Shown here in pieces: positions 1,900-32,457 of a DNA stretch of 64,000 nt. The stretch spans positions 25,087-89,086 of the forward strand of contig JAZLJP010000118.1 of assembly GCA_045617985.1 (NCBI GenBank), written 5' to 3'. The DNA is from Kiritimatiellia bacterium (GTDB taxonomy: Bacteria > Verrucomicrobiota > Kiritimatiellia > RFP12 > UBA1067). The position numbers and the translations under genes were made by a program. The notes beneath the pieces were generated by a model. The model saw nothing but the letters and a program-made list of their open reading frames with translations. It searched no databases and had not been told where the DNA came from. Each line of letters starts with the position of its first letter. The first letter of the stretch is position 1.

Positions 1900-4800
1900 T
1901 CACCGCAGGATGAACATCAGCCCACGGAGGAGGTAGACGCCACCCGGGCGCCGGACGAGTTCCGCGCGGTCTCCGCCAAGGAGCTTGAACGACAGGTCTT
2001 TCGCATTGACCGGCGGTTCGTCTTTCCACAGGATGACGGGCGTACCCGACTTCACCTGCCGCTCGCCGAGATCCACCTTGTATTCGCCCGAAGCAAAGGC
2101 CACATGCCCCGTCACGTTCGACCGTTCAAAGAAGCACAGGGTATTCCAGGCGTTCGTCTGATTCGAGAGGTCAATCGTCGCCCCGGCAGCAAGCTGCGTG
2201 TTGTGCCATTCCACGCCCGGGCGGAAGTGCCCCGTCACGGCGATCCAGCCGTTCTCGCCATTCATGTCGCAACCGTCCGTGTAGTCGCTGATGTAGTCGA
2301 GGAACGTCACCGGTCCCTTCGTTATCGACCGGTCGCGAATCGCCGCCCCGCGCATTTCAAGGCGCGTTGTGGGGGCATGTACGTAACGCGAGTCGCCGCT
2401 TTCCGAACCGCCCAAAATAAACCACCCGCCCGAATTCCCGAGAATCGTACCTCCCCCCGTCACGGTAAGGTTGCCGAAGTAGAAGTATTTGCTCGAATCC
2501 ACATCGATCTGCAAACGATGCCCGTTCATTTCCAATGTGGACGCAGCGCCACCCAAGCCAACGAACCCAAAGCCCGAACCGCGGATATAGGAATCTGCCG
2601 TCAAGGTGACATCGCTGAACCAGGCATACCCATGCTGGCTACGCGCCGTTGTACTGAGCAGCGTGCCGCCATCCAACACGAGGGGATGGTAATATTGGTT
2701 GCCGTAGCCATCGAAGTCGAGCGTTGCGCCTGTACGAACCGTGCAACGGGATCCTTCGCCACCGAGGCAAAGGCCGTTCGCCCCACATCGGAACGTACCT
2801 GCGCAGATTTCCGTTTCACCCCAATAACCGGGATTGGCGACGCCGGCGATATAGGTACCTGCACCGTCTTTCGCGAAGCCCGCCGCCCCCGTGATCTTCA
2901 CATGGCCATTCAGCGCCGTCACGCTCTCGGGGACGACGAGCCGCAGCGTACCACCCTGCCCGACGGAACTCGTATCCGTGATTGTAACCGCATAGGTGCT
3001 GTTCGCCGCGAATGAAAGCGCAAGGTCATGCCCCTGAAGATCGATGAAACTCCCCGCCGTCACCCGCGAAAGGTCGAGACCCGACCAGTCAGCATCCGCC
3101 GAGAGGCGGACATTGTCGAACGTGATCGACGCACACGCAAGCGGATTCTCCGCCGTACAAGCAAACACGGGCGAACCCGCAATCGTCACATGGGTGGCGA
3201 TCATCGGCAGCTCCCCTGTCTGGACGCCTTCCGAGTTACTACAGGTCCAATTCGCCGGATCCGTCGGATCGCCCGCGCGTCCGAGTCCCGTCCATGCCGC
3301 CTCCAACACGACATTCGCATCGGCAATGTGAAGTTCGAGGTCGTGCGCGCCATTGATGCCGAGCCAGCAGTTCGGTACCGCCGCCCCATCACCATCCACA
3401 ACTGTAAGCGTAATGTTCGCCGCCGCAAGGATCGACGTCAGGTTGCCCGCCGGGCCGATCACGAACGTTTTCGGCGCGGCCGTCGTGCCAGTATAGGTCA
3501 CGTCGATGTTTCGAAGTTCAACGAGGAAATTCTGATTCGTCTGCGCCGAGACATCCACCTTCTCCGTCCAACCCGTATCATCCGCCTTCATTTCCCAGCG
3601 CGTGTTCGCGCCCGAGAAGACGAGACTCGAGCCCAGGATCGTCCCCTTGCCGGACAGCGTACCTGCGAGCTTCATACTCGAATTGGCCAGGCCATTCGTC
3701 GCATCCAACGTACCATCCACATGAAGCGCACCATTGAGAACGGCTGCACCGTTGTATGCTTCCACGCGCGCTGCCGCCCCCTCTGGAACCATAATCGGAA
3801 TCCCCGCCGCAAACGAGGGCCCTGAAAGAAGGCGCACATACGAACCATCGGCAAGGACGAGGCCGTTCGTCACCGTACCTGTGGCGGGGCCTTCAAACTG
3901 AACATACGCTCCCGGTTCGGCAACAAGACCACCCACCGCGCACACAACCGTGTGGAGAGCAAATTGAGCGGGTCCCCTGACCCGAAGCGTGCCCGGCCCC
4001 TCAAGCACCGAGCCGGGAATTCGCGAATTCGGGAGTGGCCGAACCGAGAGATTCCCCGCGCCGCCCACCAGCGCGTCACCCGTGAGAACGAGACGGCCGA
4101 AGGTACACCCCCAAGCAGAATTCGTCCAAGAATTGACGATGGCGCCAAGATTGTCCGGGCCCGTTCCCTCCACATACACCGTCTTTCCGTGTGTCACTTC
4201 CGTTTTCGCCAAGTTCGCGGCGTTCCCCGCATTGAGATTCACGTCAAGACACGCGCCGTTCGCAATGCGGATCTCGCCCGCCGTGCCGGCCGTCGTCGTC
4301 TTGCCCGTGTTGACGAATTTGAGCGTACCGGCCTCCACACGCACCGTCGAAGCCGCCGCGAAGGTGTCGTCGTTGATTGTCAACAGACCCGGCCCCGTCT
4401 TCACGAAGGTCTCCGAAAGCGCCGTCTTCGTTTCGTTCGTAAACGCCAGGTCTCCTTCCGCATGGATCGTAAACGGCAATCCGGCCGTACCGAGCACCAT
4501 CGGCAAACGGAACGTCTGCACCACCGCCGAGGCATTCGTCAGCGTCGTCTGCACCGTCAGCGTTTGAGCGCCCGTAAAAGAAAAGGCACCGGCCGCCGCA
4601 GGGAAGACAAGCGACTGCGCCGCAGAATTCGGCAGATCGTCAACAATCGTACCACCGGCTGCCGTGGGGAACGTAATCGGCGCACCGACCATCGGCAGTA
4701 CCGAACCCACCCAGTTTCCGGTCGTGCTCCACAGACCATCGCCGGCAGCGCCAGACCATTCTGCCGCCGTCGCTTCGAGCGGACGCAGCACGAGGTCGCC

Positions 4801-6603
4801 ACCCACCACGGCAATGGTGGCCGGAAAACCGTCCTGCACTTTGAATTTCGCCGCATCGGCCTCGACGAACGCCCCGCCCGTAATGACGGGCACATCGTCC
4901 GTAAGCCCCACCACGCCCGTCGCCTGCACGGCAATGATCATCGGATTTGCCTCCGTCGCCGAAGCGTCAAGTACTACCGCGGTGACCGCCAGGCAGTCCG
5001 CCCCCTCGGGCGTCACATCCAATTCAACACTCGCGCCGCCCTTCAGCGTCAGCGTCCCCGCGACGGCGACCGTCTTCGCCTCCGTATCCGCAAAGGAGAG
5101 GCGCCCCTGTGTGAGACACAGTGCGGGAAAATTTGTCGCCGCCGCCGCATTGACGAGGAATGGGCCTGTCTTTTCGATCGTCGAATAGAGGCCGAAAATC
5201 CCAACGTCGTCAACTGCACCCTTGCGCAGTTCCAGCGCCGAACAGTCGTCGTTCACCGTGTAGTAGCAGGTCGGCCCCGCCGCATAGCCGAAAGCCGCCC
5301 CCGAACCCGCATTCGCATAGAAATCCTTCGTCACGTGGTCGTAGAGCAGCACCGTGCCATCCGCCTTACGCCACGGTACCATCTTGCGCTGCGGCATACC
5401 GTTTGAAGAGATGATGTCGAAACGGTAGAGCTTGGCCGCCGTCCACCAGTTGTCGTGGATTTTCACGCCGCCCGCCGTGGTCGCGTAGTTCTGATTGAAA
5501 ATCAGCATCGGAATCTGCGAGTCGTGCGAGGCGGACGAGAGCGTACCCGAGCCGCTCGTCGTGCCGTCGTTCCAGGTCGCCGTCTTGCCTTCGCAGGTGA
5601 TGGCGATGCGCTTACCGCGCAGAGCCGTCGAATTGCCGAGAACGACATTCGCACTATCGCGAAAATATTTGAGGTACTGCGTTGTCGCCTTGCCATTCGA
5701 GACCTGGATCGCGTAACCGTCGGTATTGTTGTTCCACATCGCGCCGAAAAGGCATGAAAAGACGTTCTGGTTGCCCGTCGAGATGTTCACATCGCATTCG
5801 ATCTTGTCGCCGCCCTTATGGTTGTAGCGGGTATTGACGTACTGTTTACCGGCCACCCCCGTCGACTCGAGATAGTCAACACGGCCGACCGACATATCAT
5901 CCGCACCATCAGATCCACGGAGGATGCCGGTGCCGCTATTGCCGTAGAACTTGCCCTCGACTTTATCCCAGAGGCCCGCCTCGCCAAGTTCGGTACGACA
6001 CGGCACGAAGTCGCGCTTCGCCACATTGTTCGCATCGAAGATCTGGAAGCCGTACAACTTGGCACTCGTCCACCAGTTGTCGCTGGTGGAAACGGCGTTG
6101 GCCGTCGTCGCCTTGTTCGCATTGAAGATCAACATCGGAATCTGCGAGTTCCCCGTCAATGCCGACGTCGATCCCGTACCGCCGTCCGTACCATCGGTCC
6201 ACGAAGCGGTTTTACCCTGGCAAGTGATCGTAATACGCTTGCCGCGCACCGCCGTCGAATTGGAAAGCACGACCAACTGCGAATTCTGACCGCCGCGCTT
6301 ATAACGCAGATACGGCTTGTCCGCACCGTTGTTGGACACCTCCATCACAAGCCCGTTATCGGCATTGTTCCAGATCGCACCGAAGAGACAAGACCACACC
6401 CTCTGGCCTGTCGCGGCAATGATCGCATCACACACGACCTTGTCGTTCTGCTGGTGGTTGTAACGCGTATTGATGTACTGCGTACCCGTCGACTCGATGT
6501 ATTCGAGCGGCAGATACCCCATCGGCAACGCCACCTCGGCCCACGCGCCCAGACCGCACACGAACGCGATCCCCGCCACAAGCTTCTTCAACTGTCCCGC
6601 CAT
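1900..6603 (-). CDS. giant secreted surface protein: two N-terminal ~190-aa lectin/LamG-like tandem repeats followed by autotransporter-associated beta-strand (PATR-type) repeats
   Basis: ORF 1900..6696 (1598 aa). Probable start is MAGQLKKLVAGIAFVCGLGAWA at 6603 (signal peptide, AAGGAA RBS upstream). Internal repeat LEYIESTG..NTRYNH..WSCLFGA..WNN..IPMLIFN..DNWWT..KLY occurs twice. Gly/Thr/Ala-rich beta-strand repeats ...GTLTLKGGASVELDV..., ...TLTVQTT... are typical of PVC autotransporter-associated repeats. Confidence 0.8.
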   Translation of the reverse strand: MAGQLKKLVAGIAFVCGLGAWAEVALPMGYLPLEYIESTGTQYINTRYNHQQNDKVVCDAIIAATGQRVWSCLFGAIWNNADNGLVMEVSNNGADKPYLRYKRGGQNSQLVVLSNSTAVRGKRITITCQGKTASWTDGTDGGTGSTSALTGNSQIPMLIFNANKATTANAVSTSDNWWTSAKLYGFQIFDANNVAKRDFVPCRTELGEAGLWDKVEGKFYGNSGTGILRGSDGADDMSVGRVDYLESTGVAGKQYVNTRYNHKGGDKIECDVNISTGNQNVFSCLFGAMWNNNTDGYAIQVSNGKATTQYLKYFRDSANVVLGNSTALRGKRIAITCEGKTATWNDGTTSGSGTLSSASHDSQIPMLIFNQNYATTAGGVKIHDNWWTAAKLYRFDIISSNGMPQRKMVPWRKADGTVLLYDHVTKDFYANAGSGAAFGYAAGPTCYYTVNDDCSALELRKGAVDDVGIFGLYSTIEKTGPFLVNAAAATNFPALCLTQGRLSFADTEAKTVAVAGTLTLKGGASVELDVTPEGADCLAVTAVVLDASATEANPMIIAVQATGVVGLTDDVPVITGGAFVEADAAKFKVQDGFPATIAVVGGDLVLRPLEATAAEWSGAAGDGLWSTTGNWVGSVLPMVGAPITFPTAAGGTIVDDLPNSAAQSLVFPAAAGAFSFTGAQTLTVQTTLTNASAVVQTFRLPMVLGTAGLPFTIHAEGDLAFTNETKTALSETFVKTGPGLLTINDDTFAAASTVRVEAGTLKFVNTGKTTTAGTAGEIRIANGACLDVNLNAGNAANLAKTEVTHGKTVYVEGTGPDNLGAIVNSWTNSAWGCTFGRLVLTGDALVGGAGNLSVRPLPNSRIPGSVLEGPGTLRVRGPAQFALHTVVCAVGGLVAEPGAYVQFEGPATGTVTNGLVLADGSYVRLLSGPSFAAGIPIMVPEGAAARVEAYNGAAVLNGALHVDGTLDATNGLANSSMKLAGTLSGKGTILGSSLVFSGANTRWEMKADDTGWTEKVDVSAQTNQNFLVELRNIDVTYTGTTAAPKTFVIGPAGNLTSILAAANITLTVVDGDGAAVPNCWLGINGAHDLELHIADANVVLEAAWTGLGRAGDPTDPANWTCSNSEGVQTGELPMIATHVTIAGSPVFACTAENPLACASITFDNVRLSADADWSGLDLSRVTAGSFIDLQGHDLALSFAANSTYAVTITDTSSVGQGGTLRLVVPESVTALNGHVKITGAAGFAKDGAGTYIAGVANPGYWGETEICAGTFRCGANGLCLGGEGSRCTVRTGATLDFDGYGNQYYHPLVLDGGTLLSTTARSQHGYAWFSDVTLTADSYIRGSGFGFVGLGGAASTLEMNGHRLQIDVDSSKYFYFGNLTVTGGGTILGNSGGWFILGGSESGDSRYVHAPTTRLEMRGAAIRDRSITKGPVTFLDYISDYTDGCDMNGENGWIAVTGHFRPGVEWHNTQLAAGATIDLSNQTNAWNTLCFFERSNVTGHVAFASGEYKVDLGERQVKSGTPVILWKDEPPVNAKDLSFKLLGGDRAELVRRPGGVYLLRGLMFILR

Positions 6604-6719: not shown

Positions 6720-7673
6720 TCAGGCAAGGGGCCGCTGGACGTTGGCATGCGTCGCTTCATCATGGAAGGAGACGACGGGATCTTCCGCTGGGCGGCCGAA
6801 GGATTTGAGAAAGCGGCAAACGGCGTAGCGCTCGGAGCGGTCGCCATAATCGGCAACCCAGGCCTCGGCCTCCTGCCGATCGATTTCGTTCGCGTAGGGG
6901 AAGGCGGGGAATCGGCCCAGCTTCTCCGTATGGCGGGCGCGCAGACGGAACGGTTTCGGCGTGAGCCGCGCCCGAAAGCATTTCTGCAGACCGCAGAGCC
7001 AGGCATAACGGGAATCCGCGTGAAAGGCGGCGAACAGCCGGTGCATGCGCTTGCTCCCCGGTTCGAGGGCCTCCCCCGTCACGATCACGCGCATGCCGGC
7101 CGCCGTGCGATAGACGCGGAATCCGAGTTCAGCGTTTTCCGGTTTCGCCGCCAGTTTTTCCGCCGTGGCGAGGGTCTTCTCCACAACGCCGTAGGAACCG
7201 AAGATGTTTCGCAGAATGTCGAGAAACGTCCAGGCGATGGAATCCACGTCAATGAAGCAGACACTCGTTGAATTCAGGACTTCCGCGCCATAGTGATTGC
7301 GGGTAACGACATTGCAGGGATCGAGTTCCCGCAGGATTTCTTCGCAGATGGGCCGTCGATAGTCGTCCCCTTCGGTTTCGTCTCCCCGGATGCGGCGGAT
7401 CTCCGAACGAAAAGCGCGGATGTCTTCGTCCGTCGGGTTCGCCAGAAGGAGGAACCGTTCGGCGGCTCGAAACGATTCTTCCACCTTTTCTTCAGCGGCG
7501 GCCCGGGATTCGTTGGAGCCGACCCGGAAGCGGAAACGGACTTCGGCGCCTTCAGCCGTCCGAAGCGTGCGGGTTTCATCGGCCCAATGACGATACAGTG
7601 GCAGGGGAGGGGTGCGGGGCGCGAGAAGACCGGATTGCTGGGGCTCCGGAAGCCCACCACGCCCCGTCATCAT
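6720..7673 (-). CDS. hypothetical protein, last gene of the VTC/DUF4956/HlyD/TolC operon
   Basis: 317-aa ORF whose start (ATGA) overlaps the TolC-like stop by 4 nt. I recognise no motif. Acidic/Arg-rich and soluble-looking. Confidence 0.5.
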   Translation of the reverse strand: MMTGRGGLPEPQQSGLLAPRTPPLPLYRHWADETRTLRTAEGAEVRFRFRVGSNESRAAAEEKVEESFRAAERFLLLANPTDEDIRAFRSEIRRIRGDETEGDDYRRPICEEILRELDPCNVVTRNHYGAEVLNSTSVCFIDVDSIAWTFLDILRNIFGSYGVVEKTLATAEKLAAKPENAELGFRVYRTAAGMRVIVTGEALEPGSKRMHRLFAAFHADSRYAWLCGLQKCFRARLTPKPFRLRARHTEKLGRFPAFPYANEIDRQEAEAWVADYGDRSERYAVCRFLKSFGRPAEDPVVSFHDEATHANVQRPLA

Positions 7674-9136
7674 GGCGCAACCTTCCCCTCGGCCACGGGC
7701 TTGAGCTCGGCCCCGTAGGGAAGCGGCCCGCCCGATACCGTTTCAAGAAGGAGGATGCGCGACACCCACTCGTATTCGGCTTCGTCCTTGAACTTGCGAT
7801 AGTCGAGCAATTCCAATTGCGCGCGGCAGATGTCGTCCGGCTTCACGGCCGTCGTCGCCGCAAACTCGTCGAGCCTCGCCTGCATGCGCTTCACGAAGGC
7901 GCGCCCCGTATCCGAGAGCCGCACGAATCGACGATCCGCAACGCCGAAATCGTCGAGCGCGCTTTCGATTTCATGCCGCACGGATTCGGCGAGCGACGCT
8001 ACGCGCACGCTATGCGCCTCTTCCAAGCTCCGCGACGCCTTCACGGCATCGCCGAACCAAGTGAAGATCGGCACCGTGATGCCCACGCGAACCTGCCACT
8101 CGTCCTCAAAGCCGCGCTTGCGCCCACGAACCGGCGTCGTCGATCCGCTCCAGATGCGTTCGGAGGAGGCATTGTGCGAATAGGTGCCTTCCACGAAATC
8201 GAACCACGGCAGATGCGCCATCTTCGCCGCGCCCACGTTCGCCTGCGCGGCGACAAGTTCCGCCCGCGCCCCCACGAGATCCGGCCGCCGCGCGAGCGCC
8301 GTCTCGGCGAGTACGGCGGCAAACGCCGCATTCGTTCCCGGCGGTTCCGGCGGCGTGTAGCGGATCTGAAGACCTCGTTCGGAGAGCCCCGTATAGAACG
8401 CAAGCTGCCGCCGCACCTGCCGCCGCGCCAGAAACGCCTCTTCCGCCTGCGCCCGCGCCTTCTCGCGCGCAACCTCGGCCTGGATCACGTCAAGCGGCGA
8501 CTTGACAATGCCTTCGGCCATCCGCCGCTCCAGGCACAGCCGCATGCGTTCCCACAATTCACCCGCCTCTTTCCGCCGCAGCTGTTCGCGCCGCAGGCGC
8601 TCCTCTTCGAGGCAGAGCGATTTCACCTCGCAATAGACCGCATACTGCGCCGTCTTCGCCCGCGCCTCCAGGGCTTCCACCTCCGCGTCTCCCGCCCGGC
8701 GCACGTAACGGTTGATGAAGGGATTGGCCACATAGAAGCGCACGCCGGCCGTGTAGGTGCCGCCGTCGCCGTTCGCCGGCGACTCGCGCGTGGAGCGCTC
8801 GCGGCTATCCTCCCACGCATGCGCAAGGCGCAGCTGCGGATCCTTCCACGCAAGATCGGCATCGACGGCCGAGCGTTTCGCCGCCGCGCGGATGGTGAGG
8901 ATCTTCGCCTCGTCCACACGCGCACCGGCCATCTTCGCGAGCTCATCCCAGCTCCAGCCACCCGCCGGCATCGCCGCGAGCGCTGCGGACTGCGGCGGCC
9001 GAGCGACGCTCTGCGGGGCGTTCGTGGGGGCGCTCGCCGCAGCCAGCAAGGCGACGAGCGGCTCTTCCGCCGTTCTGCCGCCAATCGCCGCAAGCGCCCA
9101 GCCGGCAGCAACCATCATCCGGGAAAGGCCCTTCAT
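7670..9136 (-). CDS. TolC-like outer membrane efflux protein (OMF family)
   Basis: 488 aa with a signal peptide (MKGLSRMMVAAGWALAAIG). Two-repeat coiled-coil-rich architecture with Ala/Glu/Arg heptads typical of OMF. 4-nt overlap with the upstream HlyD-family gene. Confidence 0.7.
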   Translation of the reverse strand: MKGLSRMMVAAGWALAAIGGRTAEEPLVALLAAASAPTNAPQSVARPPQSAALAAMPAGGWSWDELAKMAGARVDEAKILTIRAAAKRSAVDADLAWKDPQLRLAHAWEDSRERSTRESPANGDGGTYTAGVRFYVANPFINRYVRRAGDAEVEALEARAKTAQYAVYCEVKSLCLEEERLRREQLRRKEAGELWERMRLCLERRMAEGIVKSPLDVIQAEVAREKARAQAEEAFLARRQVRRQLAFYTGLSERGLQIRYTPPEPPGTNAAFAAVLAETALARRPDLVGARAELVAAQANVGAAKMAHLPWFDFVEGTYSHNASSERIWSGSTTPVRGRKRGFEDEWQVRVGITVPIFTWFGDAVKASRSLEEAHSVRVASLAESVRHEIESALDDFGVADRRFVRLSDTGRAFVKRMQARLDEFAATTAVKPDDICRAQLELLDYRKFKDEAEYEWVSRILLLETVSGGPLPYGAELKPVAEGKVAP

Positions 9137-10266
9137 GGCGCTGCCGCCTTCTTCTGCGAGATGAACACCGATTCACCCGGAATGAACACCGTTGAATCGC
9201 CGCGCAGGCGAATCTTGATCTTCCGGCCGCGCGCCGGCATGCGCGGCGCAGGATTCATCGGATCGAAAAAGTCGAGCACTTCGGGGTCGATCATCTCCAC
9301 GCGCCCCGTCACCGCCGCAGGCGCACCGCGCCCCGCCACGAGGCGGCTCACGAGAAGTTCGTCGCCCACGCGCACCGCGTCCACGAACTCCGCCGGCAAC
9401 ATGCCCGTGACGAAACGCGCATCGGGCGCAGAGGCGAGGCGCACGATCGCCTCGCCCGCCGGCACGATGTCGCCCGAGCGCCGGAACACCTGCGAGACGA
9501 CGCCATCGGCGAGCGCCTTCAAAACGGACGTATCGGCGCGCTGGATTTCCTCGTAGCGCCGCAGGGCCGCGCTCAGCGTCGCATTCGTCTGCGTGGGCGC
9601 GGCATCATAGGCCGCGAGTTCCGCCGTCACTTCCTTGAAATCGATCTCGGCCTGCTGCAGGCGTTCGGAGAGCGCCTGCAAGAGCGGCTCGTATCCGGCC
9701 ACCGTACGCCGGAGGGCATCCGCCTTCGGCCGGAGCGAGGTGAGCTCGAGTTCGCTCACGAGCTTCTTCTCGACGAGCGGCTTCAGGCGCGCGATTTCCG
9801 CATCGAGCCCCGCGAGTTCCGCCTCTTCGCGCATGCGTTCCATCCGGCGCTCCTCGAGGGCGACAGAGGCCTCGCGCACCATCTGGCGGCTCCGGCGCAC
9901 GGCCTCGCACAGATTCTCCCGCAGGCGCTTCGACGACTCTTCGGCCTCGCGGATCTTCACTTCGTTCATCGCCTCTTCGGCGAGACGCGCCGCCGGGTCG
10001 AACTTGACAAGCACATCGCCTGCCTTCACCCGCTGCCCCGGCACCACCTCCACCGAGACGATGCGCGCCGCCTCCACGGGCCCCACGTTCTCCGCGCCGG
10101 AATCGACGATGCCGCGGAAGCTCACCGCGCTCTCGCGCCCGAAAAGCCACATCAATACGCCTGCCGACGCCGCCAGGATCACGAGCCCGCACACGAAACG
10201 CGCGAAGGCCCGAAACCGTTGGCGCAACGGCCGCTTCAATGCCGGACGATTGTAAGATTTTTCCAT
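9133..10266 (-). CDS. HlyD-family membrane fusion (periplasmic adaptor) protein
   Basis: 377 aa. N-terminal TM anchor (FARFVCGLVILAASAGVLMWLF), then a biotinyl/lipoyl-like hairpin (VKAGDVLVKFD), a long coiled coil, and a C-terminal beta-barrel (GMLPAEFVDAVRVGDELLV). Confidence 0.75.
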   Translation of the reverse strand: MEKSYNRPALKRPLRQRFRAFARFVCGLVILAASAGVLMWLFGRESAVSFRGIVDSGAENVGPVEAARIVSVEVVPGQRVKAGDVLVKFDPAARLAEEAMNEVKIREAEESSKRLRENLCEAVRRSRQMVREASVALEERRMERMREEAELAGLDAEIARLKPLVEKKLVSELELTSLRPKADALRRTVAGYEPLLQALSERLQQAEIDFKEVTAELAAYDAAPTQTNATLSAALRRYEEIQRADTSVLKALADGVVSQVFRRSGDIVPAGEAIVRLASAPDARFVTGMLPAEFVDAVRVGDELLVSRLVAGRGAPAAVTGRVEMIDPEVLDFFDPMNPAPRMPARGRKIKIRLRGDSTVFIPGESVFISQKKAAAP

Positions 10267-10286
10267 CTCTGACCTCTCGCCCCCGC

Positions 10287-10988
10287 TTACAGTTCAACGG
10301 TGCTCCGCTGGAGCAGCAACACCGGCGAGGCGAAATGCCCCGCGTCCTTCAACGCCGCCACGAGATCCTTCCGATAGGACGGATCGAGCAGCCGCACCTG
10401 ATACGAGAATTCCGCCGCTTCGCCCTGCACGGCGTCGCACACGCCCAAAACACAGAACGAACTACAGTATCTGACGAGGATCGACTCGAGCGCCGCCTCG
10501 GCCTCCTTGTCGCCCGTCTTCATCGAGAAGCGCAACATGCCCTCGTAGTCGCGGCGGCTCGCAAACGGCAGAACGTGGAGAAGGAACGCCGTGAGCGCAA
10601 AAAAGAGCGTACCCGCCACGGCCACGAAGAAGGCCCCGGCGCCGCAGGCGATGCCCGCGCCAAGGCAGGCGAAAAGGAACACCGCATCGCGCGGATCGCG
10701 AATGGGCGTACGGAAACGGATGATCGTGAGCGTACCGAGAATGCCGAGCCCGCGCGCGAGGTTGTTCCCCACGGCCATGATGAGCATGCAGGTGACGATC
10801 GAGCCGAGCACCATCGACTGGATGAACGAACGCGAATAGGTGAACCCGCGGAACGTGAACTGGTAGAGCACCGCCGAGACGAGCGAAAGGAGGAGCGCAA
10901 GCCCCATCGAGACGAGAATCATCTCGGGCGAGAGCGCCTGGCCGCCACCGAGGAACATCGAAAGGTAATCATTGGAATTCGGATTCAC
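10287..10988 (-). CDS. DUF4956-family membrane protein (usual partner of bacterial VTC/polyphosphate-polymerase-domain proteins)
   Basis: 233 aa. N-terminal half has 3-4 TM helices; C-terminal soluble domain. Size, topology and its position immediately downstream of the VTC-domain gene fit the DUF4956 family. Confidence 0.55.
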   Translation of the reverse strand: MNPNSNDYLSMFLGGGQALSPEMILVSMGLALLLSLVSAVLYQFTFRGFTYSRSFIQSMVLGSIVTCMLIMAVGNNLARGLGILGTLTIIRFRTPIRDPRDAVFLFACLGAGIACGAGAFFVAVAGTLFFALTAFLLHVLPFASRRDYEGMLRFSMKTGDKEAEAALESILVRYCSSFCVLGVCDAVQGEAAEFSYQVRLLDPSYRKDLVAALKDAGHFASPVLLLQRSTVEL

Positions 10989-11009
10989 GATTTCATCTCC
11001 CCGTTCACA

Positions 11010-11816
11010 TCAAATGGCCGAAAGGACCGCCTGCTGGGCGGCATTCGTAGATGGGTAGCCCAGGAAAGCCCCCTCCCGCCAGATGGCCGTTGAATACTTG
11101 CAGTTGCCGCTGCGCTTCAAATCGAAGCGCTTCACGAGTTCAATCACCCAGGTGGGCACGGTGTTGTAGGTTTTCACCTCCAGCACCACCCCCGAGTACG
11201 GCAGGCCGAACCCCTGCGCCGTGCAGGAATCCATGCTCCGCCAAATGCCGCTGCGGCCAAAATCCGTCCAGGAATCCGTGCGCTGGTACTCGAGCTTGCG
11301 GTCGAAGGTGATGCGCACGTAGTCATCCACCACGCCGATGTAGGATTCGCGGATATAACGCACGAGCGTCTCCGGGCGGGCCCCCGTTTCCCACACCACG
11401 CGGCGGAACTTGAGAAAGTCGATTTCCTGCTTCTTGTTCTTGAAGATCGGCGGCACGCGCGTGCCGTAGACCAAAGCCTCGTTCCATTCCCTGAACGGAA
11501 CCGAGGCGCGGGCCTTCACGATCGTCCGCTCGAACTTCGCCTTGATTTCGGCGAAGATCGGCGCCGAACCGATTTCACCGTAGGTCCGCACCCGCATCTT
11601 GAAACGCGCATCAAGCTCGTCTTCCTTCGCGTAGTGGAGCGCGTAGTTCGGCGTTTCAAGCTGGAGCGTGGTGATCATGTATTCGGGCGGATCGCCGCGC
11701 GTGTTGGGGTCGGGCTCGCAGAACGGGCGTACGAACTCGCGAATCCCCGCGACCTGCGATCGCGGGATGATGTATTTCGACTCGTAACGCGAAACAATGT
11801 CCGCCGCCGCCGCCAT
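11010..11816 (-). CDS. VTC/CYTH-like (triphosphate tunnel) polyphosphate-polymerase-domain protein
   Basis: 268 aa, soluble. N-terminal RYESKYIIP matches the ExK(Y/F) opening strand of CYTH/VTC tunnel enzymes. Basic residues are spread along predicted beta strands. Paired with a DUF4956 gene as in other bacteria. Confidence 0.6.
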   Translation of the reverse strand: MAAAADIVSRYESKYIIPRSQVAGIREFVRPFCEPDPNTRGDPPEYMITTLQLETPNYALHYAKEDELDARFKMRVRTYGEIGSAPIFAEIKAKFERTIVKARASVPFREWNEALVYGTRVPPIFKNKKQEIDFLKFRRVVWETGARPETLVRYIRESYIGVVDDYVRITFDRKLEYQRTDSWTDFGRSGIWRSMDSCTAQGFGLPYSGVVLEVKTYNTVPTWVIELVKRFDLKRSGNCKYSTAIWREGAFLGYPSTNAAQQAVLSAI

Positions 11817-11818
11817 CG

Positions 11819-13666
11819 TCAGTCGCTCACCCTCACTTTGAAAAACGCCTTGTTCCCGGCCCGCGGCGCCACGAGCGCCTTCGCCTTGCCGTCGCCGTCC
11901 GCCACGGCCCCAACCGCCGGCCAGGGGCTGGGAGTGGCGAGATCGGTCGCCGAAAGGAGCTGATACTTGAGGCCCGCGCGCGTGCGCACGCCTACGTTCA
12001 CCATGTCCGCCAGGCAGGAAATCGTTTCAATGCCGTCCGTCGCAAGATCGGCGTACTCCGGCGCCGCGAGCGCATTCAGCGTGAGCGTTACCGTCTTCGT
12101 CTTCCCTTCCGCAGGGTCGACATCGTAGTAGGCCGGGATCTCCAGTTCGTCCCCCTCCTTCGTGACGATCGTGTGGTCAGTCACCTTCGCCTTCTTCTCG
12201 AAGACGAGCGGCGTGCGGCTGTTCGCATCCGCATAGGCTTCCGCCACGCTCTTCGGCTCCGGCACGGACGCCGTGCGCCCGGGGATGCTCACGAGGAGGT
12301 TGAACTCCGTCCCCGCCGGGAACGTGGGCAGGCGCGGCTTCACCGTGAACGCCACGTTGTTCGTCACACCCTCGAGGAGGAGATACTTTCCGCTATAGCC
12401 TGCAATCGGCAGCGTGCCGTAGTAGGTGGGCTGGAAGAAGGTGGTTTTCCCCACTTCCGTAGAGCCGGAGCCGATGCGCTCGGCGCCCACGCCGTCCGTC
12501 GCCACCACGATGCCGCCGCTGATCGTGAGCCTCTTCGCCTTGTTCACATCGAGGCCATGCGCGAGCGGCGCGGTCGCGTAGGCGCGCAGGCTGCCGCCGC
12601 TGATCGTCATGTCGGCGTTCGCGTCCAACACGTCGTCGAACACCGAAACGCCGCGGAACGTGCCGCCGCGCACGAAGATGTTGCCGTTCGCGCTCACGCA
12701 GTCGTCGCCCGCCACGAGGTCGAACGTGCCGCCCGTGATGGTGATGTCGGTTCCCGCCGTGGAATCGTTCGTGAAGATCTCGCTCCCTTCAAGCGGCAGC
12801 TCCGCTTCGAAGTCGCCGCCGTTGATGGTGATCGACGACTCCGCCTTCACCGCGCTCAGGGTCGTTGGATAGTAGGCCGCGGTCATCTTCGAAGTGATGT
12901 TCGTCATGAACGTGTACGAGCCGCCATTGAAGACGATCTTGCCGCCGCTCACGAAACGCCCCTCGGGGCCTTCGAATTCGGCCTTCACTTCGCCGTCCGT
13001 AAAGGTGGCCGTGCAGGATCCCTTGAGGTCGATCGCGCGCGACTTCGTGCCGGCGATTTCGGCATTGAACTTGCCGCCTTCGAGCCGAAACGTGGTGCTC
13101 TTCGAATCGAAGGTCACGCCGTGGAACTCGTTCGTGCAGTTCTTCTTGTTCATGTCCACCTTCATCTTGCCGCCCGTCTGAAGGTAGTTGCCCTTGAGGA
13201 AGATGCAGGAGGTGTCGCTCTTGTCGTTGTCGAAGGTCACCGTGGTGTCGCCGCCCTCGACCGTGAGGTTATTGCACACCAAAACGCCCGAACGCGTGCC
13301 GGAATCCGTAATGCGCTTCTCGCTGAGGAGTTCGAGCGAGCCTGAGCCGGTGATGACGAGGTTCGTCTTTTTCGTCGCCTTGATGCACTCCTTGTTGTCG
13401 TCGAGCATCTGGAACACGTTCTGCGTTCCGTCCACGAGTTCGATCGTATAGGTAACAGGCGAGGCCTCGTTCGCGCTGCGCAACTTGAGCGAGCAGTTGG
13501 TGAACGTGACGCCGTTCAAGATGATCTTCGTATTGGTACGACAGCTCTTGTCGACGTCCGTCGTATAGGGGCCGGAAAGAGTGATATCGGCATCGCCCAG
13601 GCAACTGCAGGCCCACAAGAGGCCGATGCCCGCAACGGAACGGATCATCGTCGTCGTGTTCTTCAT
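11819..13666 (-). CDS. secreted right-handed beta-helix repeat protein (carbohydrate-binding-like)
   Basis: ORF 11819..13807, but the true start is probably MKNTTTMIRSVAGIGLLWACS at 13666 (signal peptide). That removes the apparent overlap with the nucleoside hydrolase gene. Repeated GG(T/S)F..., ITI(S/T)GG, N/D/T-rich beta-helix coils throughout. Confidence 0.65.
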   Translation of the reverse strand: MKNTTTMIRSVAGIGLLWACSCLGDADITLSGPYTTDVDKSCRTNTKIILNGVTFTNCSLKLRSANEASPVTYTIELVDGTQNVFQMLDDNKECIKATKKTNLVITGSGSLELLSEKRITDSGTRSGVLVCNNLTVEGGDTTVTFDNDKSDTSCIFLKGNYLQTGGKMKVDMNKKNCTNEFHGVTFDSKSTTFRLEGGKFNAEIAGTKSRAIDLKGSCTATFTDGEVKAEFEGPEGRFVSGGKIVFNGGSYTFMTNITSKMTAAYYPTTLSAVKAESSITINGGDFEAELPLEGSEIFTNDSTAGTDITITGGTFDLVAGDDCVSANGNIFVRGGTFRGVSVFDDVLDANADMTISGGSLRAYATAPLAHGLDVNKAKRLTISGGIVVATDGVGAERIGSGSTEVGKTTFFQPTYYGTLPIAGYSGKYLLLEGVTNNVAFTVKPRLPTFPAGTEFNLLVSIPGRTASVPEPKSVAEAYADANSRTPLVFEKKAKVTDHTIVTKEGDELEIPAYYDVDPAEGKTKTVTLTLNALAAPEYADLATDGIETISCLADMVNVGVRTRAGLKYQLLSATDLATPSPWPAVGAVADGDGKAKALVAPRAGNKAFFKVRVSD

Positions 13667-13676
13667 GGCAGACTCC

Positions 13677-14699
13677 TTATTTGCCCTTGGCGCGCGGGCC
13701 GCGGGCGATGAGTTCGTCAACGATCTTGCCCACTTCGGCCTTCGGGGTCTTGACCGTGAGCACGTAGTGGTTCCCCTTCTCGTCCTTCGTCCAGGTGTTG
13801 TAGCCACGCCCCTTCTTCATCGTGATGTCGAAGCGGCCGCGTTCCACCCCGAAATAGGCCTCCCGGCCACGCACCGCCGCGAGGGCCGTGATTTCATCCC
13901 ACGCCGCATGGCCGCGGTTCGATTCCCCGTAGTCGTGAAGCGCCCGCTTGAAGGCGTTCCTTACGGGGTTCGCCTCGTCGGCCAGGCGCGCCGCCGGTAC
14001 GCCGCAGTACACGTCGCGGCCATAGACGCAATCCAAGACGTAAATGGGCGTGGGCCATTGGGCAAAGGCGATTTTGGTGGATTCGCCGTCCATCATCGAA
14101 TTGTATTCGAATCCGTTCGGAAAACGACACGCCATCGCGTACCAGGCATTCACCTTTTTCGCGACGAGCGCACGCCCGTCGAGCGGCGAGGCGGCATCGC
14201 CCTTCGTTTCAAGCAGACGGCGCAGATTCGTCGTGAAGCCCACGGAAACGATCGTCACGCTCTTATCCGGCGCCGCGGCGAGAAGCTTGCGGTAGACCTC
14301 GTTCGCATCCGGCACCGGCTCCACGCCCGGATGGTGCCTCACCGCCGAGCTCGCCTTCACCATGTCCGCATAGATGCGATAGGACTTGTTCTTCACCGCC
14401 CCCGGATCGTTCTCCGGCCCCACGCCGATTCCCTTCGGCTCCGCCACGGGCAGATTCGCCCGGCCATAGAAGGCATTGATGATTTCGATCATTCCCACGG
14501 CCTGCGACCCGCGCGTGGAAGCAACCGTGCCAATCAGCTCGCACTCGCCCGCATCGGCAAGCGTATGCAGCACCGCAAGAGCCCCCACATCGTCAAAATC
14601 CGTGTACATATCCGTATCGAAGATGATCTTCGGCACGGCAGAAAACACCGATAAGCCTGCGACAAGCGCGCATGAAATGAAGATAAAAAATTTTTTCAT
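13677..14699 (-). CDS. inosine-uridine-preferring nucleoside hydrolase family protein (secreted/lipoprotein-like)
   Basis: 340 aa with a signal peptide. N-terminal IIFDTDMYTDFDDVGALAVLH carries the IUNH Asp-cluster (DxDxxxDD) signature. Confidence 0.8.
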   Translation of the reverse strand: MKKFFIFISCALVAGLSVFSAVPKIIFDTDMYTDFDDVGALAVLHTLADAGECELIGTVASTRGSQAVGMIEIINAFYGRANLPVAEPKGIGVGPENDPGAVKNKSYRIYADMVKASSAVRHHPGVEPVPDANEVYRKLLAAAPDKSVTIVSVGFTTNLRRLLETKGDAASPLDGRALVAKKVNAWYAMACRFPNGFEYNSMMDGESTKIAFAQWPTPIYVLDCVYGRDVYCGVPAARLADEANPVRNAFKRALHDYGESNRGHAAWDEITALAAVRGREAYFGVERGRFDITMKKGRGYNTWTKDEKGNHYVLTVKTPKAEVGKIVDELIARGPRAKGK

Positions 14700-14706
14700 A
14701 TAGGAA

Positions 14707-14715
14707 ATTATAGCA
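14707..14715 (-). promoter_or_regulatory. extended -10 promoter element TGCTATAAT, 7 nt upstream of the nucleoside-hydrolase ATG
   Basis: Reverse complement of 14707-14715 is TGCTATAAT. The ATG is at 14699. This implies a leaderless or very short-leader transcript. Confidence 0.35.
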
Positions 14716-14770
14716 TAACCCTAAAAAAGACACAACAGGTCATTTCGCCCTTGGGCTATGCGAACGGGGG

Positions 14771-14844
14771 CATCTGAGTCCTTCACCGCGCTTTCCTCTT
14801 GTTCACGCCTAGAGCCTCGCGGGCGCGTGGGAAACGGATGGCGG
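14771..14844. repeat. ~75-nt intergenic repeat element, copy A (paralogous to 32462-32539)
   Basis: CATCTGAGT..TTCACCGCG..CCTCTTGTT..GCC.AG.GCCTCGCGGGCG..GGGAA.CG..GGCGG shares ~80% identity with the second copy. Sits directly 3' of the 14845..17949 gene stop. Confidence 0.5.
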
Positions 14845-17800
14845 TCAGTAGAGGCGTTTGCCGTAGACGAGGAATTTTTCGAGGGCGAACGTGGCACGCT
14901 TGCTGGGGGCGACCGGCTTCACCACGATGAAGCGCGCGCGTTTCGGCGTTTTCGAAAGATCGAGGCGGGCTTCCGTCGCCGTGACCGTCATTGCGCCGAG
15001 GGATTGCCAGGTTTCGCCGTCGTCGGAAATCTCCACGGTGAGGGCGGGCAGCTTCGGCCCCACCACGCGCACGCCCGCAATCTCCGTGTCGCCGCCGAGG
15101 CGCTGGCCGATCCAGAGGTCGCCGTCGTCCATTGCGGCGACGGCCGGTGGCCCCGCCTTCGCAACGCGGAGGGGCGAAGCGTCCAGAAGCTCGCCGTGGC
15201 GCTCGCTCTGATCGTGGCGGCTCGCCTTCGTCATCCGAACGAGCGAACGATCGGAAACGAGCTTGCCGCCGAAATCGGCCTCCGGGTAGGCCGCCGCGCC
15301 CGGGCGCGCCGCCGGGAGCGGGAAGAATTTCGCCATCGCCTCCCTGAGGCGCTGGACGGCGCTTGGATTATCCCGCGCCTCCATCTGCGAAATGAGCGCG
15401 CGCCACGGCTTGACGTCGCGCACGTCCGTACTCCCCAGGGCGGCGGCCACGGCTGCGAAGAAGCGCTCTTCGTACTTCGCGCGCCCGAGGTAGCGTTTCA
15501 CGCCGCGCTGGAGAATCTGGGCAAAATAGTCCTTGCTCGTCTTCTGGGTTTCAAGCGCCTCAAGGTAGATATCGAAAAGTTCCTGGGAGGACGAACGGAA
15601 CGCGGAATCGAAGACGTCGAGCACATAGCCGAAATCCTGCGGCTCGGGATAGCGCCCTTCCTCTTCCTTCGTCGCCTCCAGGAAGCGTTTCACCCACGCG
15701 CGCCGCAACTCGGGCTTTCCCGCCTGTACAAAGACGTCGAACATCTTGTTGAGAAGCTCGATGTTGCCCGGAATCTTGTTCGGCATCGTCTTGAGCACCG
15801 CCTCGCCCAGGGCCGACCATCGTTCGACCGACCGGGGCGCCACCTCTTCGAGATACCACGCCCAGTCCATCGCGGCATGGAGATGCCCCGGCACCGTTTC
15901 CATCGCATGCCGGTAGAGGGCGCCCACCTCGTCGCGGTAGGTTTCCCTTCCGCCCAGGCGCGCCGCCGTACGCCGCGCCCCCGCGAACCACCGCGGAAAT
16001 TCGCGCGCCTCAAGCGGCGTTTCCTCGTAGAGTTCTTCGCCGAGGAGGATGTTATGATAGCCGCCCCACTTCATGAAGATGGACCACTTGCCGCGCGTGT
16101 AGGGCTTGATGTTGTAGTGCTTTTCCCACCGTTTCGGCCCGCCCTTCTGCGGCCGCACGAGGAACGCGCAGTGCGCGGGCTGCCCAGCCGTGACCGCCAT
16201 GAGGCCGTGCGCGTGGCCGAGGGTCACGGCAAAGGACGAAATCATGTTGCACACGCCGCCGATTTCCGTCGCCACCGTATAGCGCGTATCGGTATGCGCC
16301 CAGGGCTGGTAATAGGCGGCCTTGAACACCGATTCGCCGAAACAGTTCCGCAGCCGATACGGCACCTGCCAGCCCTGCTTGAAGAGGCGCGCGTAGGAGC
16401 AGTTCGCAAAGGCGTTGAGCGCGAGGAGGTCTTCGGGTTTCGTACGGTCCCAGGGAAAGAGAAGATAGCGCCAGCCGTAGACGTCAAGGTGCTGCACGCG
16501 GTCGTGAAGGCGGCCCGAGCGCGCGAGGTCGCGGAAGATCGCAAGCGTCTTCACCGTATTGACCTGATTTGACGCCGCCGCCGGGAAGTTCAGCGAAAAG
16601 GCCGTCGCGGCCCGGCGGAGAAGCGGATCTTTTTCCACCTCCGGCAGATTGAAGACGAACGTCTCCAGGTTCTGAAGCGCCGCGCCGCCGCCGAAGTGCA
16701 AATGCCCGGATCCGGCAAACGCCTCCATCCACTCGCGATCGGCGAAGAACCGCTCGAGGAACGCATGGCCGCCCGCGCGATGGCAGATTTGCGCAATCGC
16801 GTTCGTGCTCGTTTCCGAAAGGATGAACGCGCGCACGAGGGAGGTGCGTACCGATAGCGGCAGAGCGGGCGTGAGATCGTGCGCCGAAATCTTGTCCAAG
16901 ACGGCGCAATCCGCCCTGAGGCGCGCCGTCCACGCGGCCGCCGCGCGCGCGCCGTCCACGGCGGAACGGGCTTTCAGCACTGCGGCCTTCGGCGCGGCCT
17001 TCAGATACTTCTTCGCCTCGGGCGCCTCTTCGCGGAGGAGGAACCCCACCGCCGCTTTGCCCCAGAAGGTGTCAGCGCCCATCGCGGCCACTTCGTCGAG
17101 CAGCTTCACGTTCTCGGCCTTCTTCCCCAGATCGAGGCGGTAGAGCGCGTAGGCGAGGAGTTTCACGCCCTGCTTCTGGTTGAGCGTGAGGTGGGCCGCC
17201 GGCTTTGCCGTTTCGCGCGCGAGGAAGGCCTTCGCCTCGTCGAAGCGCTCCGCCTCCCGAAGCGCGTTCAACTCCTTGATGAGAGACGTGCAGTTGCCGA
17301 GCGTGAAGCGGCGCTGCCAGCCCGTCTGATCAAGCGGATCGACTTTCTTGAGTTTCGCGAAAACAGCGCCAAGGCACGTCGCTTCGATCACGCGCGCATC
17401 GCCCACGCCCTGCGCGAAAAGGTGGAGCGCCTCGCCATAGAATTCCGCCTCTCTGAGAGGGTTTGCACAGACGCCCGCCTGCGCGCACAAATAAAGGGCG
17501 CGCGCGTGGACGGCCTCCGCCGCCTGAATCCGGCGCTTCAGATCGGCGGCCGTCGTCGTGATCGGCAGGTTCTCGAGAGCGAGAAAGCCGCGGCCCTCGG
17601 CATCGCTCGCGAAGAGCGCCGGCAGGCGCACACTCCCGAGGTCGCCCCGTTTCGCCCATGCGTTCGCCCGCTTGATCGCGTCCGTCACCCGGTCGGCATC
17701 ATCGAGAACGCCGAACACGTAGCGGTTGGTGAGAGCCTGCACGAACGCGGGCGAACGGAACACCTTCAAAACCTCCCGCCCGCTCGCGCTCCAGTCGCTC

Positions 17801-17949
17801 CCGTAGGCGTAGACAAGCATCCCCTTCCCCGCCGCTTTCGCCTCGGAAAAGATGTCCGCAGAGGCGGCAAGCCCCCATCCGCCGCACAATCCAACCAAGA
17901 CAATCGCGATTCCCCAACGCTTCAACCAGGTTTGTTTAAAATTTTTCAT
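14845..17949 (-). CDS. large secreted protein with a transglutaminase-like cysteine-protease core and C-terminal discoidin (F5/8 type C)-like domain
   Basis: ORF 14845..18051. The signal peptide starts at MKNFKQTWLKRWGIAIVLVGLCGGWGLAASA (17949). GGVCNMISSFAVTLGHAHGL...HCAFLV resembles the TGase-like GVC...H motif. The C-terminal beta-sandwich segment ...ARFIVVKPVAPSKRATFALEKFLVYG is discoidin-like. Confidence 0.55.
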   Translation of the reverse strand: MKNFKQTWLKRWGIAIVLVGLCGGWGLAASADIFSEAKAAGKGMLVYAYGSDWSASGREVLKVFRSPAFVQALTNRYVFGVLDDADRVTDAIKRANAWAKRGDLGSVRLPALFASDAEGRGFLALENLPITTTAADLKRRIQAAEAVHARALYLCAQAGVCANPLREAEFYGEALHLFAQGVGDARVIEATCLGAVFAKLKKVDPLDQTGWQRRFTLGNCTSLIKELNALREAERFDEAKAFLARETAKPAAHLTLNQKQGVKLLAYALYRLDLGKKAENVKLLDEVAAMGADTFWGKAAVGFLLREEAPEAKKYLKAAPKAAVLKARSAVDGARAAAAWTARLRADCAVLDKISAHDLTPALPLSVRTSLVRAFILSETSTNAIAQICHRAGGHAFLERFFADREWMEAFAGSGHLHFGGGAALQNLETFVFNLPEVEKDPLLRRAATAFSLNFPAAASNQVNTVKTLAIFRDLARSGRLHDRVQHLDVYGWRYLLFPWDRTKPEDLLALNAFANCSYARLFKQGWQVPYRLRNCFGESVFKAAYYQPWAHTDTRYTVATEIGGVCNMISSFAVTLGHAHGLMAVTAGQPAHCAFLVRPQKGGPKRWEKHYNIKPYTRGKWSIFMKWGGYHNILLGEELYEETPLEAREFPRWFAGARRTAARLGGRETYRDEVGALYRHAMETVPGHLHAAMDWAWYLEEVAPRSVERWSALGEAVLKTMPNKIPGNIELLNKMFDVFVQAGKPELRRAWVKRFLEATKEEEGRYPEPQDFGYVLDVFDSAFRSSSQELFDIYLEALETQKTSKDYFAQILQRGVKRYLGRAKYEERFFAAVAAALGSTDVRDVKPWRALISQMEARDNPSAVQRLREAMAKFFPLPAARPGAAAYPEADFGGKLVSDRSLVRMTKASRHDQSERHGELLDASPLRVAKAGPPAVAAMDDGDLWIGQRLGGDTEIAGVRVVGPKLPALTVEISDDGETWQSLGAMTVTATEARLDLSKTPKRARFIVVKPVAPSKRATFALEKFLVYGKRLY

Positions 17950-17955
17950 TCCTCC

Positions 17956-17964
17956 ATTATACCA
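17956..17964 (-). promoter_or_regulatory. extended -10 element TGGTATAAT immediately (6 nt, GGAGGA) upstream of ATG 17949
   Basis: Reverse complement of 17956-17964 is TGGTATAAT. The same 9-mer recurs upstream of at least four other genes in the window. Confidence 0.35.
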
Positions 17965-18058
17965 TAAAATCCCCTCGCCATGAACAGAGCGAAAAAATCG
18001 GTCCTTGGCGCCTGGTGTGGCCCCCCGAGTTTCACCCTTTGACTTTTTCACCTCCCCT

Positions 18059-18184
18059 TCATGCTTCCTGTTTTTCCTTCGCTTCGTTTTCCGGCGTGGC
18101 CTTGCCCAGGCAATGCCCCATCAGGAAGAGGCCGAGGACGGAACCGAGGGAGACGGCGACGATGACGATGACTTTTGTCAGCAT
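18059..18184 (-). CDS. small hydrophobic membrane peptide (41 aa) between the anti-sigma gene and the TGase-like protein
   Basis: I translated this by hand: MLTKVIVIVAVSLGSVLGLFLMGHCLGKATPENEAKEKQEA. Below the 60-aa ORF-track cutoff. Weak RBS. Confidence 0.3.
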   Translation of the reverse strand: MLTKVIVIVAVSLGSVLGLFLMGHCLGKATPENEAKEKQEA

Positions 18185-18223
18185 GGATTTGATCTTTCTT
18201 TTTTGTTGTTTGTGGTTAAAAAA

Positions 18224-31787: not shown

Positions 31788-31886
31788 AACTTCTCCATTT
31801 GATAATGCGTAACTTTTGTCGGCAACGCCCACCAATCAAGTACATAGTCCGTTCCAGCAGTTTCGTCGTCTGCTTGATTGATGATT

Positions 31887-32264: not shown

Positions 32265-32400
32265 CGTCTGCCTCCCAATCGAGTTCCATTCACGATCATC
32301 CCATTCGTGACTTGAGAGATACAGTTCAGTGTTGCTTTTCGGGAAGGTTTCGGGTAACCTACCCGATTGTGAAAAAGGCCAACCCGAAGGCAATGAAGAC

Positions 32401-32430: not shown

Positions 32431-32457
32431 CATCATTCCGCACAATTTGTCACTGTG

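Follow-up and report, generated by a model that had tools for sequence, protein, structure and literature searches.

The vacuolar transporter chaperone (VTC) complex of eukaryotes couples the polymerization of polyphosphate to its translocation. Bacteria also expose or release polyphosphate, and we know of no exporter for it. A bacterial gene set encoding VTC-domain, DUF4956 and CotH proteins is widespread and functionally blank; in Gram-positive bacteria, genes for CotH, a polyphosphate polymerase, DUF4956 and DUF4832 form a set beside pel operons (Whitfield et al., 10.1101/768473), and SIR_1591-1594 of Streptococcus intermedius are accessory genes of this kind (PMC12345266). The authors of the S. 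intermedius work did not find the triad outside pel (10.1101/2024.04.20.589940; PMC12345266). This monoderm set (CotH-VTC-DUF4956, sometimes with DUF4832) includes neither a periplasmic adaptor nor an outer-membrane efflux protein (OEP; 10.1101/768473; PMC12345266), as expected if these two genes serve only the crossing of a second membrane. Here, we describe a cassette from a Kiritimatiellia bacterium (assembly GCA_045617985.1, contig JAZLJP010000118.1, positions 25,087 to 89,086; this whole stretch of 64,000 nucleotides is called the window) in which a VTC-domain gene and a DUF4956 gene are joined to genes for an HlyD-type adaptor and a TolC-like OEP. The cassette looks like an undescribed machine that makes a polyanion and passes it out of a two-membrane cell. 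All evidence presented on it is computational. The open-access literature that was searched yielded no paper on DUF4956 together with VTC or on a polyphosphate polymerase with HlyD, and no description of the assembly, in agreement with a sequence-only reading of this DNA, which had known of no earlier description.

A four-gene core conserved in PVC bacteria

The conserved unit is VTC-DUF4956-HlyD-type adaptor-TolC-like OEP, and it occurs in bacteria of the Planctomycetes-Verrucomicrobia-Chlamydiae (PVC) group (Kiritimatiellia, Lentisphaerae, and Verrucomicrobia). The linkage of VTC and DUF4956 to HlyD and a TolC-like OEP, first proposed from the window alone, was found there and in at least 70 related loci, and it is strongly conserved among PVC genomes while its flanks vary. 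The survey from the VTC side took one genome per species and comprised 64 loci (VTC identity 42-94%) from metagenome-assembled genomes of Kiritimatiellia, Lentisphaerae, and Verrucomicrobia, from Pontiella sulfatireligans F21, which is in culture, and from three isolates of the Pontiellaceae. In tblastn searches of species-representative PVC genomes, VTC, DUF4956, and HlyD genes stood in this order in 57 of the 59 loci with room for them, and all four core genes were present in 48 of the 53 with room; three loci that appeared to lack an OEP had one by Pfam or carried an unrecognized open reading frame (ORF) of 570-680 amino acids (aa) in its place. The neighborhoods of VTC homologs with 65-82% identity all read VTC-DUF4956-~400-aa protein-OEP between unrelated flanking genes, and across the surveyed PVC loci the flanking genes had turned over fully while the core was kept. 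Neighboring core genes mostly overlap or stand 1-30 nt apart (for DUF4956 and the adaptor, 1-28 nt or an overlap in most loci), and the adaptor has diverged in parallel with VTC and DUF4956. In P. sulfatireligans F21 (locus L054), the run reads CotH (1631 aa)-VTC-DUF4956-HlyD (338 aa)-OEP-like protein (411 aa), and in 25 Pontiella-type loci this same OEP-like protein (410 aa) comes next after the adaptor. The hit lengths of adaptor and OEP correlate weakly (r = 0.22).

The linkage was also examined from the adaptor side by searching metagenome contigs with an 8-sequence, adaptor-only alignment, an 18-sequence version being too diverse. DUF4956 lies directly upstream of each of the 13 full-length adaptor orthologs recovered (39-76% identity; none of the 13 is without it), VTC is present where the contig reaches that far, and an OEP gene lies downstream wherever the contig extends past the adaptor. 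We regard it as very probable that the four core genes make up one functional, envelope-spanning module.

In the window, the core lies within a run of seven co-directional ORFs at 6720-14699, listed here in gene order:

13677-14699, minus strand: secreted nucleoside-hydrolase-like protein, 340 aa (Pfam IU_nuc_hydro, E 1.2e-10)
11819-13669, minus strand: secreted Cthe_2159-family beta-helix protein, 616 aa, starting MKNTTTM (Pfam Cthe_2159, E 1.7e-11)
11010-11816, minus strand: cytoplasmic VTC-domain protein, Vtc4-like, 268 aa, core gene 1 (Pfam VTC, PF09359)
10287-10988, minus strand: DUF4956 inner-membrane protein, 233 aa, core gene 2 (Pfam PF16316)
9133-10266, minus strand: HlyD/EmrA-type periplasmic adaptor, 377 aa, core gene 3 (Pfam HlyD_3, Biotin_lipoyl_2)
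7670-9136, minus strand: TolC-like outer-membrane factor, 488 aa, core gene 4 (Pfam OEP)
6720-7673, minus strand: 317-aa protein without a family match (nothing in Pfam or NCBIfam)

The successive junctions measure 7, 2, 21, and 20 nt, followed by two 4-nt overlaps, of the adaptor stop with the OEP start and of the OEP stop with the start of the 317-aa gene (ATGA, read directly in the sequence); gaps of 145 nt upstream and ~116 nt downstream limit the run. All Pfam domain calls in the run score above their gathering thresholds. The ORF layout bears out the seven minus-strand genes, overlapping by 4 nt or at most 21 nt apart, that the sequence-only reading had reported, and Pfam bears out its domain assignments, with matches to IU_nuc_hydro, Cthe_2159, VTC, DUF4956, HlyD, and OEP. 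Its view of the seven genes as a functional unit does not hold, as only four are conserved across loci.

In L037, the OEP gene of the cassette is followed directly by a second OEP gene (14368-15852) with a strong match (E 5e-60). A 3.1-kb contig binned as Bifidobacteriaceae (L036) carries VTC-DUF4956 and then an HlyD-like gene, with a VTC ~50% identical to that of the window; it is probably mis-binned, because a monoderm should need no adaptor. The VTC-DUF4956 pair of L032 and L033 occupies 9971-11510 and is followed by a convergent YchF-like gene.

The tunnel enzyme, DUF4956 and the pump-less adaptor and channel

The 268-aa protein is a putative polyphosphate polymerase. It matches Pfam VTC over nearly the whole profile (positions 2-231 of 235; E 5.9e-27, 95.2 bits vs. 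a 23-bit cut-off); it has no CYTH family match in the Pfam scan, and it starts ..RYESKYII.., as had been read from the sequence. A profile of 22 homologs (44-82% identity to the window protein) aligns to the catalytic domain of yeast Vtc4 (E 5.9e-07), and the following window residues, each given with its Vtc4 counterpart in this profile alignment, are invariant in the 22 sequences: K14 (K200), R75/R77 (R264/R266), K92 (K281), K101/R103 (K294/R296), Y154/R156 (Y359/R361), R168 (R373), and E213/K215 (E426/K428). In Vtc4, these residues line the catalytic tunnel and are needed for polymerase activity, a role reportedly described by Hothorn and co-workers in 2009. The VTC domain is the only one in the protein, which contains no SPX domain, DUF202 helices, hydrophobic segment, or signal peptide, and is thus a free cytoplasmic tunnel enzyme.

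Its neighbor matches DUF4956 (PF16316) with E 1.2e-10 and 41.8 bits against a 30.6-bit cut-off, and belongs to a family of 5344 clusters at 50% identity, of which the top 150 are all ~230 aa long. The AlphaFold model (predicted local distance difference test score, pLDDT, 79.8) places five helices within residues 21-139, one more than the four membrane helices first assigned to this protein, and a C-terminal beta-alpha-beta-beta-alpha-beta element that forms an ACT-like, cytoplasmic domain. The charge distribution indicates an N-out, C-in topology, which places an invariant loop (RFRTPxRDPRD) and further invariant arginines at the cytoplasmic face. The window protein scores 23.7 bits against Pfam MgtC (PF02308), below the 31.4-bit gathering threshold, and many DUF4956 orthologs do match this family. 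Within the cassette, DUF4956 alone crosses the inner membrane several times, the other membrane element being the anchor of the adaptor. It is likely that DUF4956 serves as the adaptor's inner-membrane partner and stands in for a pump; because it is the only polytopic membrane protein welded to the anchored adaptor, we infer that it would also be the inner-membrane conduit.

The adaptor matches HlyD_3 (E 4e-7, 31.2 bits vs. a 22.2-bit cut-off) and Biotin_lipoyl_2, its NCBIfam matches (TIGR01843 and EmrA-type) all falling far below the trusted cut-offs of the named subfamilies, and its closest solved chains are HlyD (8dck) and EmrA (4tko). An alignment of 18 orthologs shows a conserved basic cytoplasmic tail (FKRPxLR) and a single conserved N-terminal membrane anchor, along with a long helical segment and the lipoyl/HlyD_3 elements. 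The outer-membrane factor has a signal peptide, two OEP repeats (E 1.4e-19, 71.1 bits vs. a 22-bit cut-off), and matches to TIGR01845 and TIGR01844 in NCBIfam.

Pumps were sought as ORFs with a Walker A motif plus an ABC (ATP-binding cassette) signature or with at least six hydrophobic segments. No ABC-like ORF or ORF with at least six transmembrane (TM) segments lies in or beside the run, and the ABC-like ORFs of the window that come closest are located at ~46 kb and ~60 kb; no ABC, RND, MFS, or PET pump gene is conserved beside the core in the window run or in ~85 orthologous loci. The same metagenome scan returned 42 other hits of the adaptor search, which are generic HlyD genes; most of those with room adjoin a 10-TM, EmrB-like ORF of ~506-528 aa, an ABC-like ORF, or a 10-12-TM ORF of RND size. 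The detector is therefore validated, since it found pumps beside most generic HlyD genes with room, and with this positive control the earlier observation that the cassette has no inner-membrane pump extends to its orthologous loci. None of the three findings that the sequence-only reading had named as refuting its proposal (missing VTC or DUF4956 matches, a pump as the true partner in orthologous loci, and linkage not kept in related genomes) was made.

Proposed coupling of polyphosphate synthesis to export, and the alternatives

The best and most economical reading of the domain identities, conserved tunnel residues, obligate synteny, and absence of a pump is polyphosphate synthesis coupled to export, to which we assign a probability of about 0.45. 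Polyphosphate would then be the product and would leave through the HlyD-type adaptor and OEP; as the identity of the exported cargo, polyphosphate is put forward tentatively, at a little under even odds. In the mechanism that we propose, the tunnel enzyme, docked on a DUF4956 oligomer at the inner membrane's cytoplasmic face, would use ATP to polymerize polyphosphate; DUF4956 and the TM anchors of the adaptor would occupy the place that an ABC, RND, or MFS pump holds in ordinary tripartite systems, and the adaptor and OEP would take the nascent polyanion over the periplasm and the outer membrane. Translocation would be powered by polymerization itself, the principle of both synthase-dependent exopolysaccharide secretion and the eukaryotic VTC complex. 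The extracellular product would serve the variable secreted partners encoded beside the core, namely giant proteins resembling CotH kinases, the beta-helix protein of the Cthe_2159 family, and glycosidase-like DUF4832 proteins. A further-reaching version is doubtful in our estimate. In it, the cassette would be the first bacterial case of synthase-dependent polyphosphate secretion: a Vtc4-like polymerase would thread the chain through oligomeric DUF4956 and then through an HlyD/TolC duct that lacks a pump, and at the cell surface polyphosphate would supply secreted kinases of the CotH type and carbohydrate-binding partners, as a phosphoryl donor or as a substrate.

Several points weigh against coupled synthesis and export. 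To our knowledge, bacterial VTC-domain proteins have not been assigned any biochemical activity, and TolC-type channels usually favor cations. Vtc4 K458, the catalytic lysine missing from inactive paralogs, has a possible counterpart in K240 of an invariant GNCKYS motif at the expected place, but the HMM (hidden Markov model) alignment ends at Vtc4 446, and a C-terminal VTC fragment aimed at K458 found no match among PDB sequences. DUF4956 resembles MgtC, which is a regulator and not a shown transporter, and its profile returned only noise from PDB sequences, with no similarity to Vtc1/DUF202 or to solved transporters; VTC-DUF4956 or DUF4956-HlyD fusions are likewise missing from the top 150 family representatives, which is weak negative evidence. 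The survey is confined to PVC relatives, owing to the retrieval of loci by similarity to the query, and does not extend to the DUF2490-linked version of Bacteroidota or to versions in other non-PVC diderms; part of the conservation of the core is thus common descent. Two loci, L032 and L033, carry the VTC-DUF4956 pair but neither an adaptor gene nor an OEP gene within 10 kb of it, so the pair can stand alone in a PVC genome. Deletion of the Gram-positive homologs in S. intermedius gave no clear phenotype (PMC12345266), and a preprint suggested that polyphosphate may remain cytoplasmic in the Gram-positive organism (10.1101/2024.04.20.589940).

The alternative that survives best, itself improbable, is an exporter of other cargo powered by the tunnel enzyme: the enzyme would hydrolyze ATP or triphosphate or make short oligophosphates, DUF4956 would energize or gate the passage, and the cargo would be, for example, a small molecule, a glycan, or a secreted partner like Cthe_2159 or CotH. 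Enzymes of the CYTH/triphosphate tunnel metalloenzyme (TTM) group are mostly hydrolases or cyclases, and the VTC protein keeps one glutamate of the ExExK strand (R-Y-E-x-K); in addition, the ACT domain of DUF4956 suggests ligand-gated control, and the secreted partners vary among loci. Against this alternative stand a 95-bit VTC match combined with no CYTH match, the retention of the Vtc4 polymerase tunnel residues, the ordinary Sec-type signal peptides of the secreted partners, and some loci, such as L007, in which no secreted partner adjoins the core. Still less probable is that polyphosphate is made and kept in the cell or on the inner membrane, with DUF4956 as an MgtC-like regulator of phosphate or ATP homeostasis and the adaptor and OEP handling a by-product or counter-ion or tethering the envelope. 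The MgtC-like architecture, the cytoplasmic fate suggested for the Gram-positive product (10.1101/2024.04.20.589940), and the lone pairs of L032 and L033 are consistent with this account, yet it leaves unexplained why more than 60 loci tie an anchored adaptor and an OEP to the pair and have no transporter, and why secreted CotH, DUF4832, or Cthe_2159 proteins keep it company in monoderms and diderms alike (10.1101/768473). Least probable of all is that the adaptor and OEP serve a conventional ABC, MFS, or RND pump encoded elsewhere and are merely co-located or co-regulated with VTC-DUF4956, because, although other bacteria have outer-membrane factors, and some adaptors, that serve more than one system, and inspection covered ~10 kb on each side of the loci, none of the ~85 orthologous loci has the pump that mostly adjoins generic HlyD genes in the same scan, the spacing of DUF4956 and adaptor is very tight in most loci, adaptor orthologs were never found without DUF4956, and adaptor divergence tracks that of VTC and DUF4956.

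If polyphosphate synthesis is indeed coupled to export here, several consequences would follow. Tripartite envelope systems would gain a fifth kind of inner-membrane partner, and the "polymerize and translocate" logic of VTC would predate eukaryotes. Coupled export would also offer an answer to how secreted CotH kinases obtain a phosphoryl donor outside the cell. The further-reaching version would in addition explain the CotH-VTC-DUF4956 triad of Gram-positive bacteria and make DUF4956/MgtC-like proteins a new class of inner-membrane component for tripartite systems. The PVC cassette offers a concrete, testable hypothesis together with cultured material, P. sulfatireligans F21.

Accessory genes, surroundings and known systems

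Secreted CotH, Cthe_2159, and DUF4832 proteins are variable accessories of the core. Giant CotH proteins (with LTD and CHB_HEX_C_1 domains and signal peptides) are encoded just after the OEP gene or before VTC in many loci, and a DUF4832 gene follows CotH in L005. The Cthe_2159 beta-helix protein is an accessory specific to the clade of the window, where its gene ends 2 nt before VTC and encodes a signal-peptide-like N-terminus; it lies directly upstream of VTC in L001, L002, L009-L011, L013, L014, and L076-L078, and farther upstream, with a CotH gene between, in L012 and L015, the former reading Cthe_2159-CotH-VTC-DUF4956-HlyD-OEP as a single run. At 5240-8985 of L005, genes for exopolyphosphatase (PPX) and polyphosphate kinase 1 (PPK1) directly precede the run VTC-DUF4956-HlyD-OEP-CotH-DUF4832, which ties this locus to the metabolism of polyphosphate; the presence of PPK1 means that VTC is not the only polyphosphate synthase of that cell.

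The outer two genes of the run in the window do not belong to the core. A nucleoside hydrolase gene adjoins the cassette elsewhere only in L009, the closest relative; it is no conserved member, though probably co-transcribed in the window. The 317-aa protein had been suggested as a CotH-like partner or an accessory factor, a role that fell away: it matches neither CotH (PF08757) nor any other Pfam family, shows no kinase-like fold, and does not recur at the surveyed loci, being absent from the 72 loci L001-L072 and from L076-L130, including L009 with 94% VTC identity. Its homologs form a PVC-wide family of ~280 aa in unrelated contexts (in Akkermansia, for example, between a fumarase gene and hypothetical genes); a fold search gave only weak matches resembling archaeo-eukaryotic primases (AEP), and a search of viral folds gave nothing.

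Directly upstream of the run, same-strand genes at 14845-19112 encode an extracytoplasmic function (ECF) sigma factor (18567-19112, minus strand), a small protein that is a putative anti-sigma factor (18224-18616), and a protein of 1068 aa in which an F5/8 type C domain is weakly recognized; together they could regulate the run. A scan for promoters and terminators performed no better than on shuffled sequence, and no Rfam family matched anywhere in the window. Directly downstream of the run, a gene at 1900-6603 (minus strand) encodes a 1568-aa protein with no Pfam match, whose N-terminus contains two repeats of ~250 aa (Y-x-E-S-T-G ... Q-Y-x-N-T-R-Y-N-H). Farther away, the segment at ~31800-34100 has a GC content of ~0.47 vs. 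~0.62 in the remaining window and contains small hydrophobic ORFs (e.g., one of 258 aa at 32979-33755) but no RNA family. This patch may have been acquired horizontally, as an island.

Among known systems, the Gram-positive pel-linked set shares its families, VTC, DUF4956, CotH, and DUF4832, with the genes in and beside the PVC core, whereas the PVC loci lie outside pel operons and add an adaptor and OEP; the window departs further, having no CotH gene in all 64 kb and Cthe_2159 upstream instead. MgtC/SapB/YhiD proteins resemble DUF4956 in their approximately five helices and C-terminal ACT-like domain, with weak sequence matches, and we know of no MgtC protein paired with a tunnel enzyme or an adaptor. 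The alginate (Alg8/Alg44/AlgK-AlgE), cellulose (Bcs), and Pel systems offer a conceptual likeness only, in that a polymerase at the cytoplasmic face pushes a nascent anionic polymer out by way of a partner in the inner membrane, an adaptor-like protein in the periplasm, and a pore in the outer membrane, and Alg44 has a domain like that of membrane fusion proteins. Unlike these systems, the cassette has no glycosyltransferase, its polymer would be inorganic if the proposal holds, and its outer-membrane part is TolC-like rather than a beta-barrel porin with a tetratricopeptide repeat (TPR) scaffold. HlyBD-TolC, EmrAB-TolC, and MacAB-TolC share with it an anchored HlyD/EmrA-type adaptor and, next in order, a TolC-family OEP, the genes of which often overlap; in the cassette, however, a five-helix MgtC-like protein and a cytoplasmic polymerase stand in place of the ABC, MFS, RND, or PET transporter. 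The eukaryotic VTC complex (yeast Vtc4/Vtc3/Vtc1; PDB 3g3q, 7ytj, 8i6v) has the same catalytic tunnel domain, in which the basic and acidic residues of the tunnel agree, and likewise pairs the enzyme with a small multi-helix membrane protein. In the cassette, by contrast, the catalytic domain is free-standing at 268 aa, without SPX or fused DUF202 helices, and its membrane partner is DUF4956/MgtC-like, without a detectable relation to Vtc1. The logic proposed to be common to both is polymerization at a membrane coupled to translocation of the chain, which in eukaryotes is directed to the vacuole and in the cassette would be directed, through the adaptor and outer-membrane channel, to the cell exterior.

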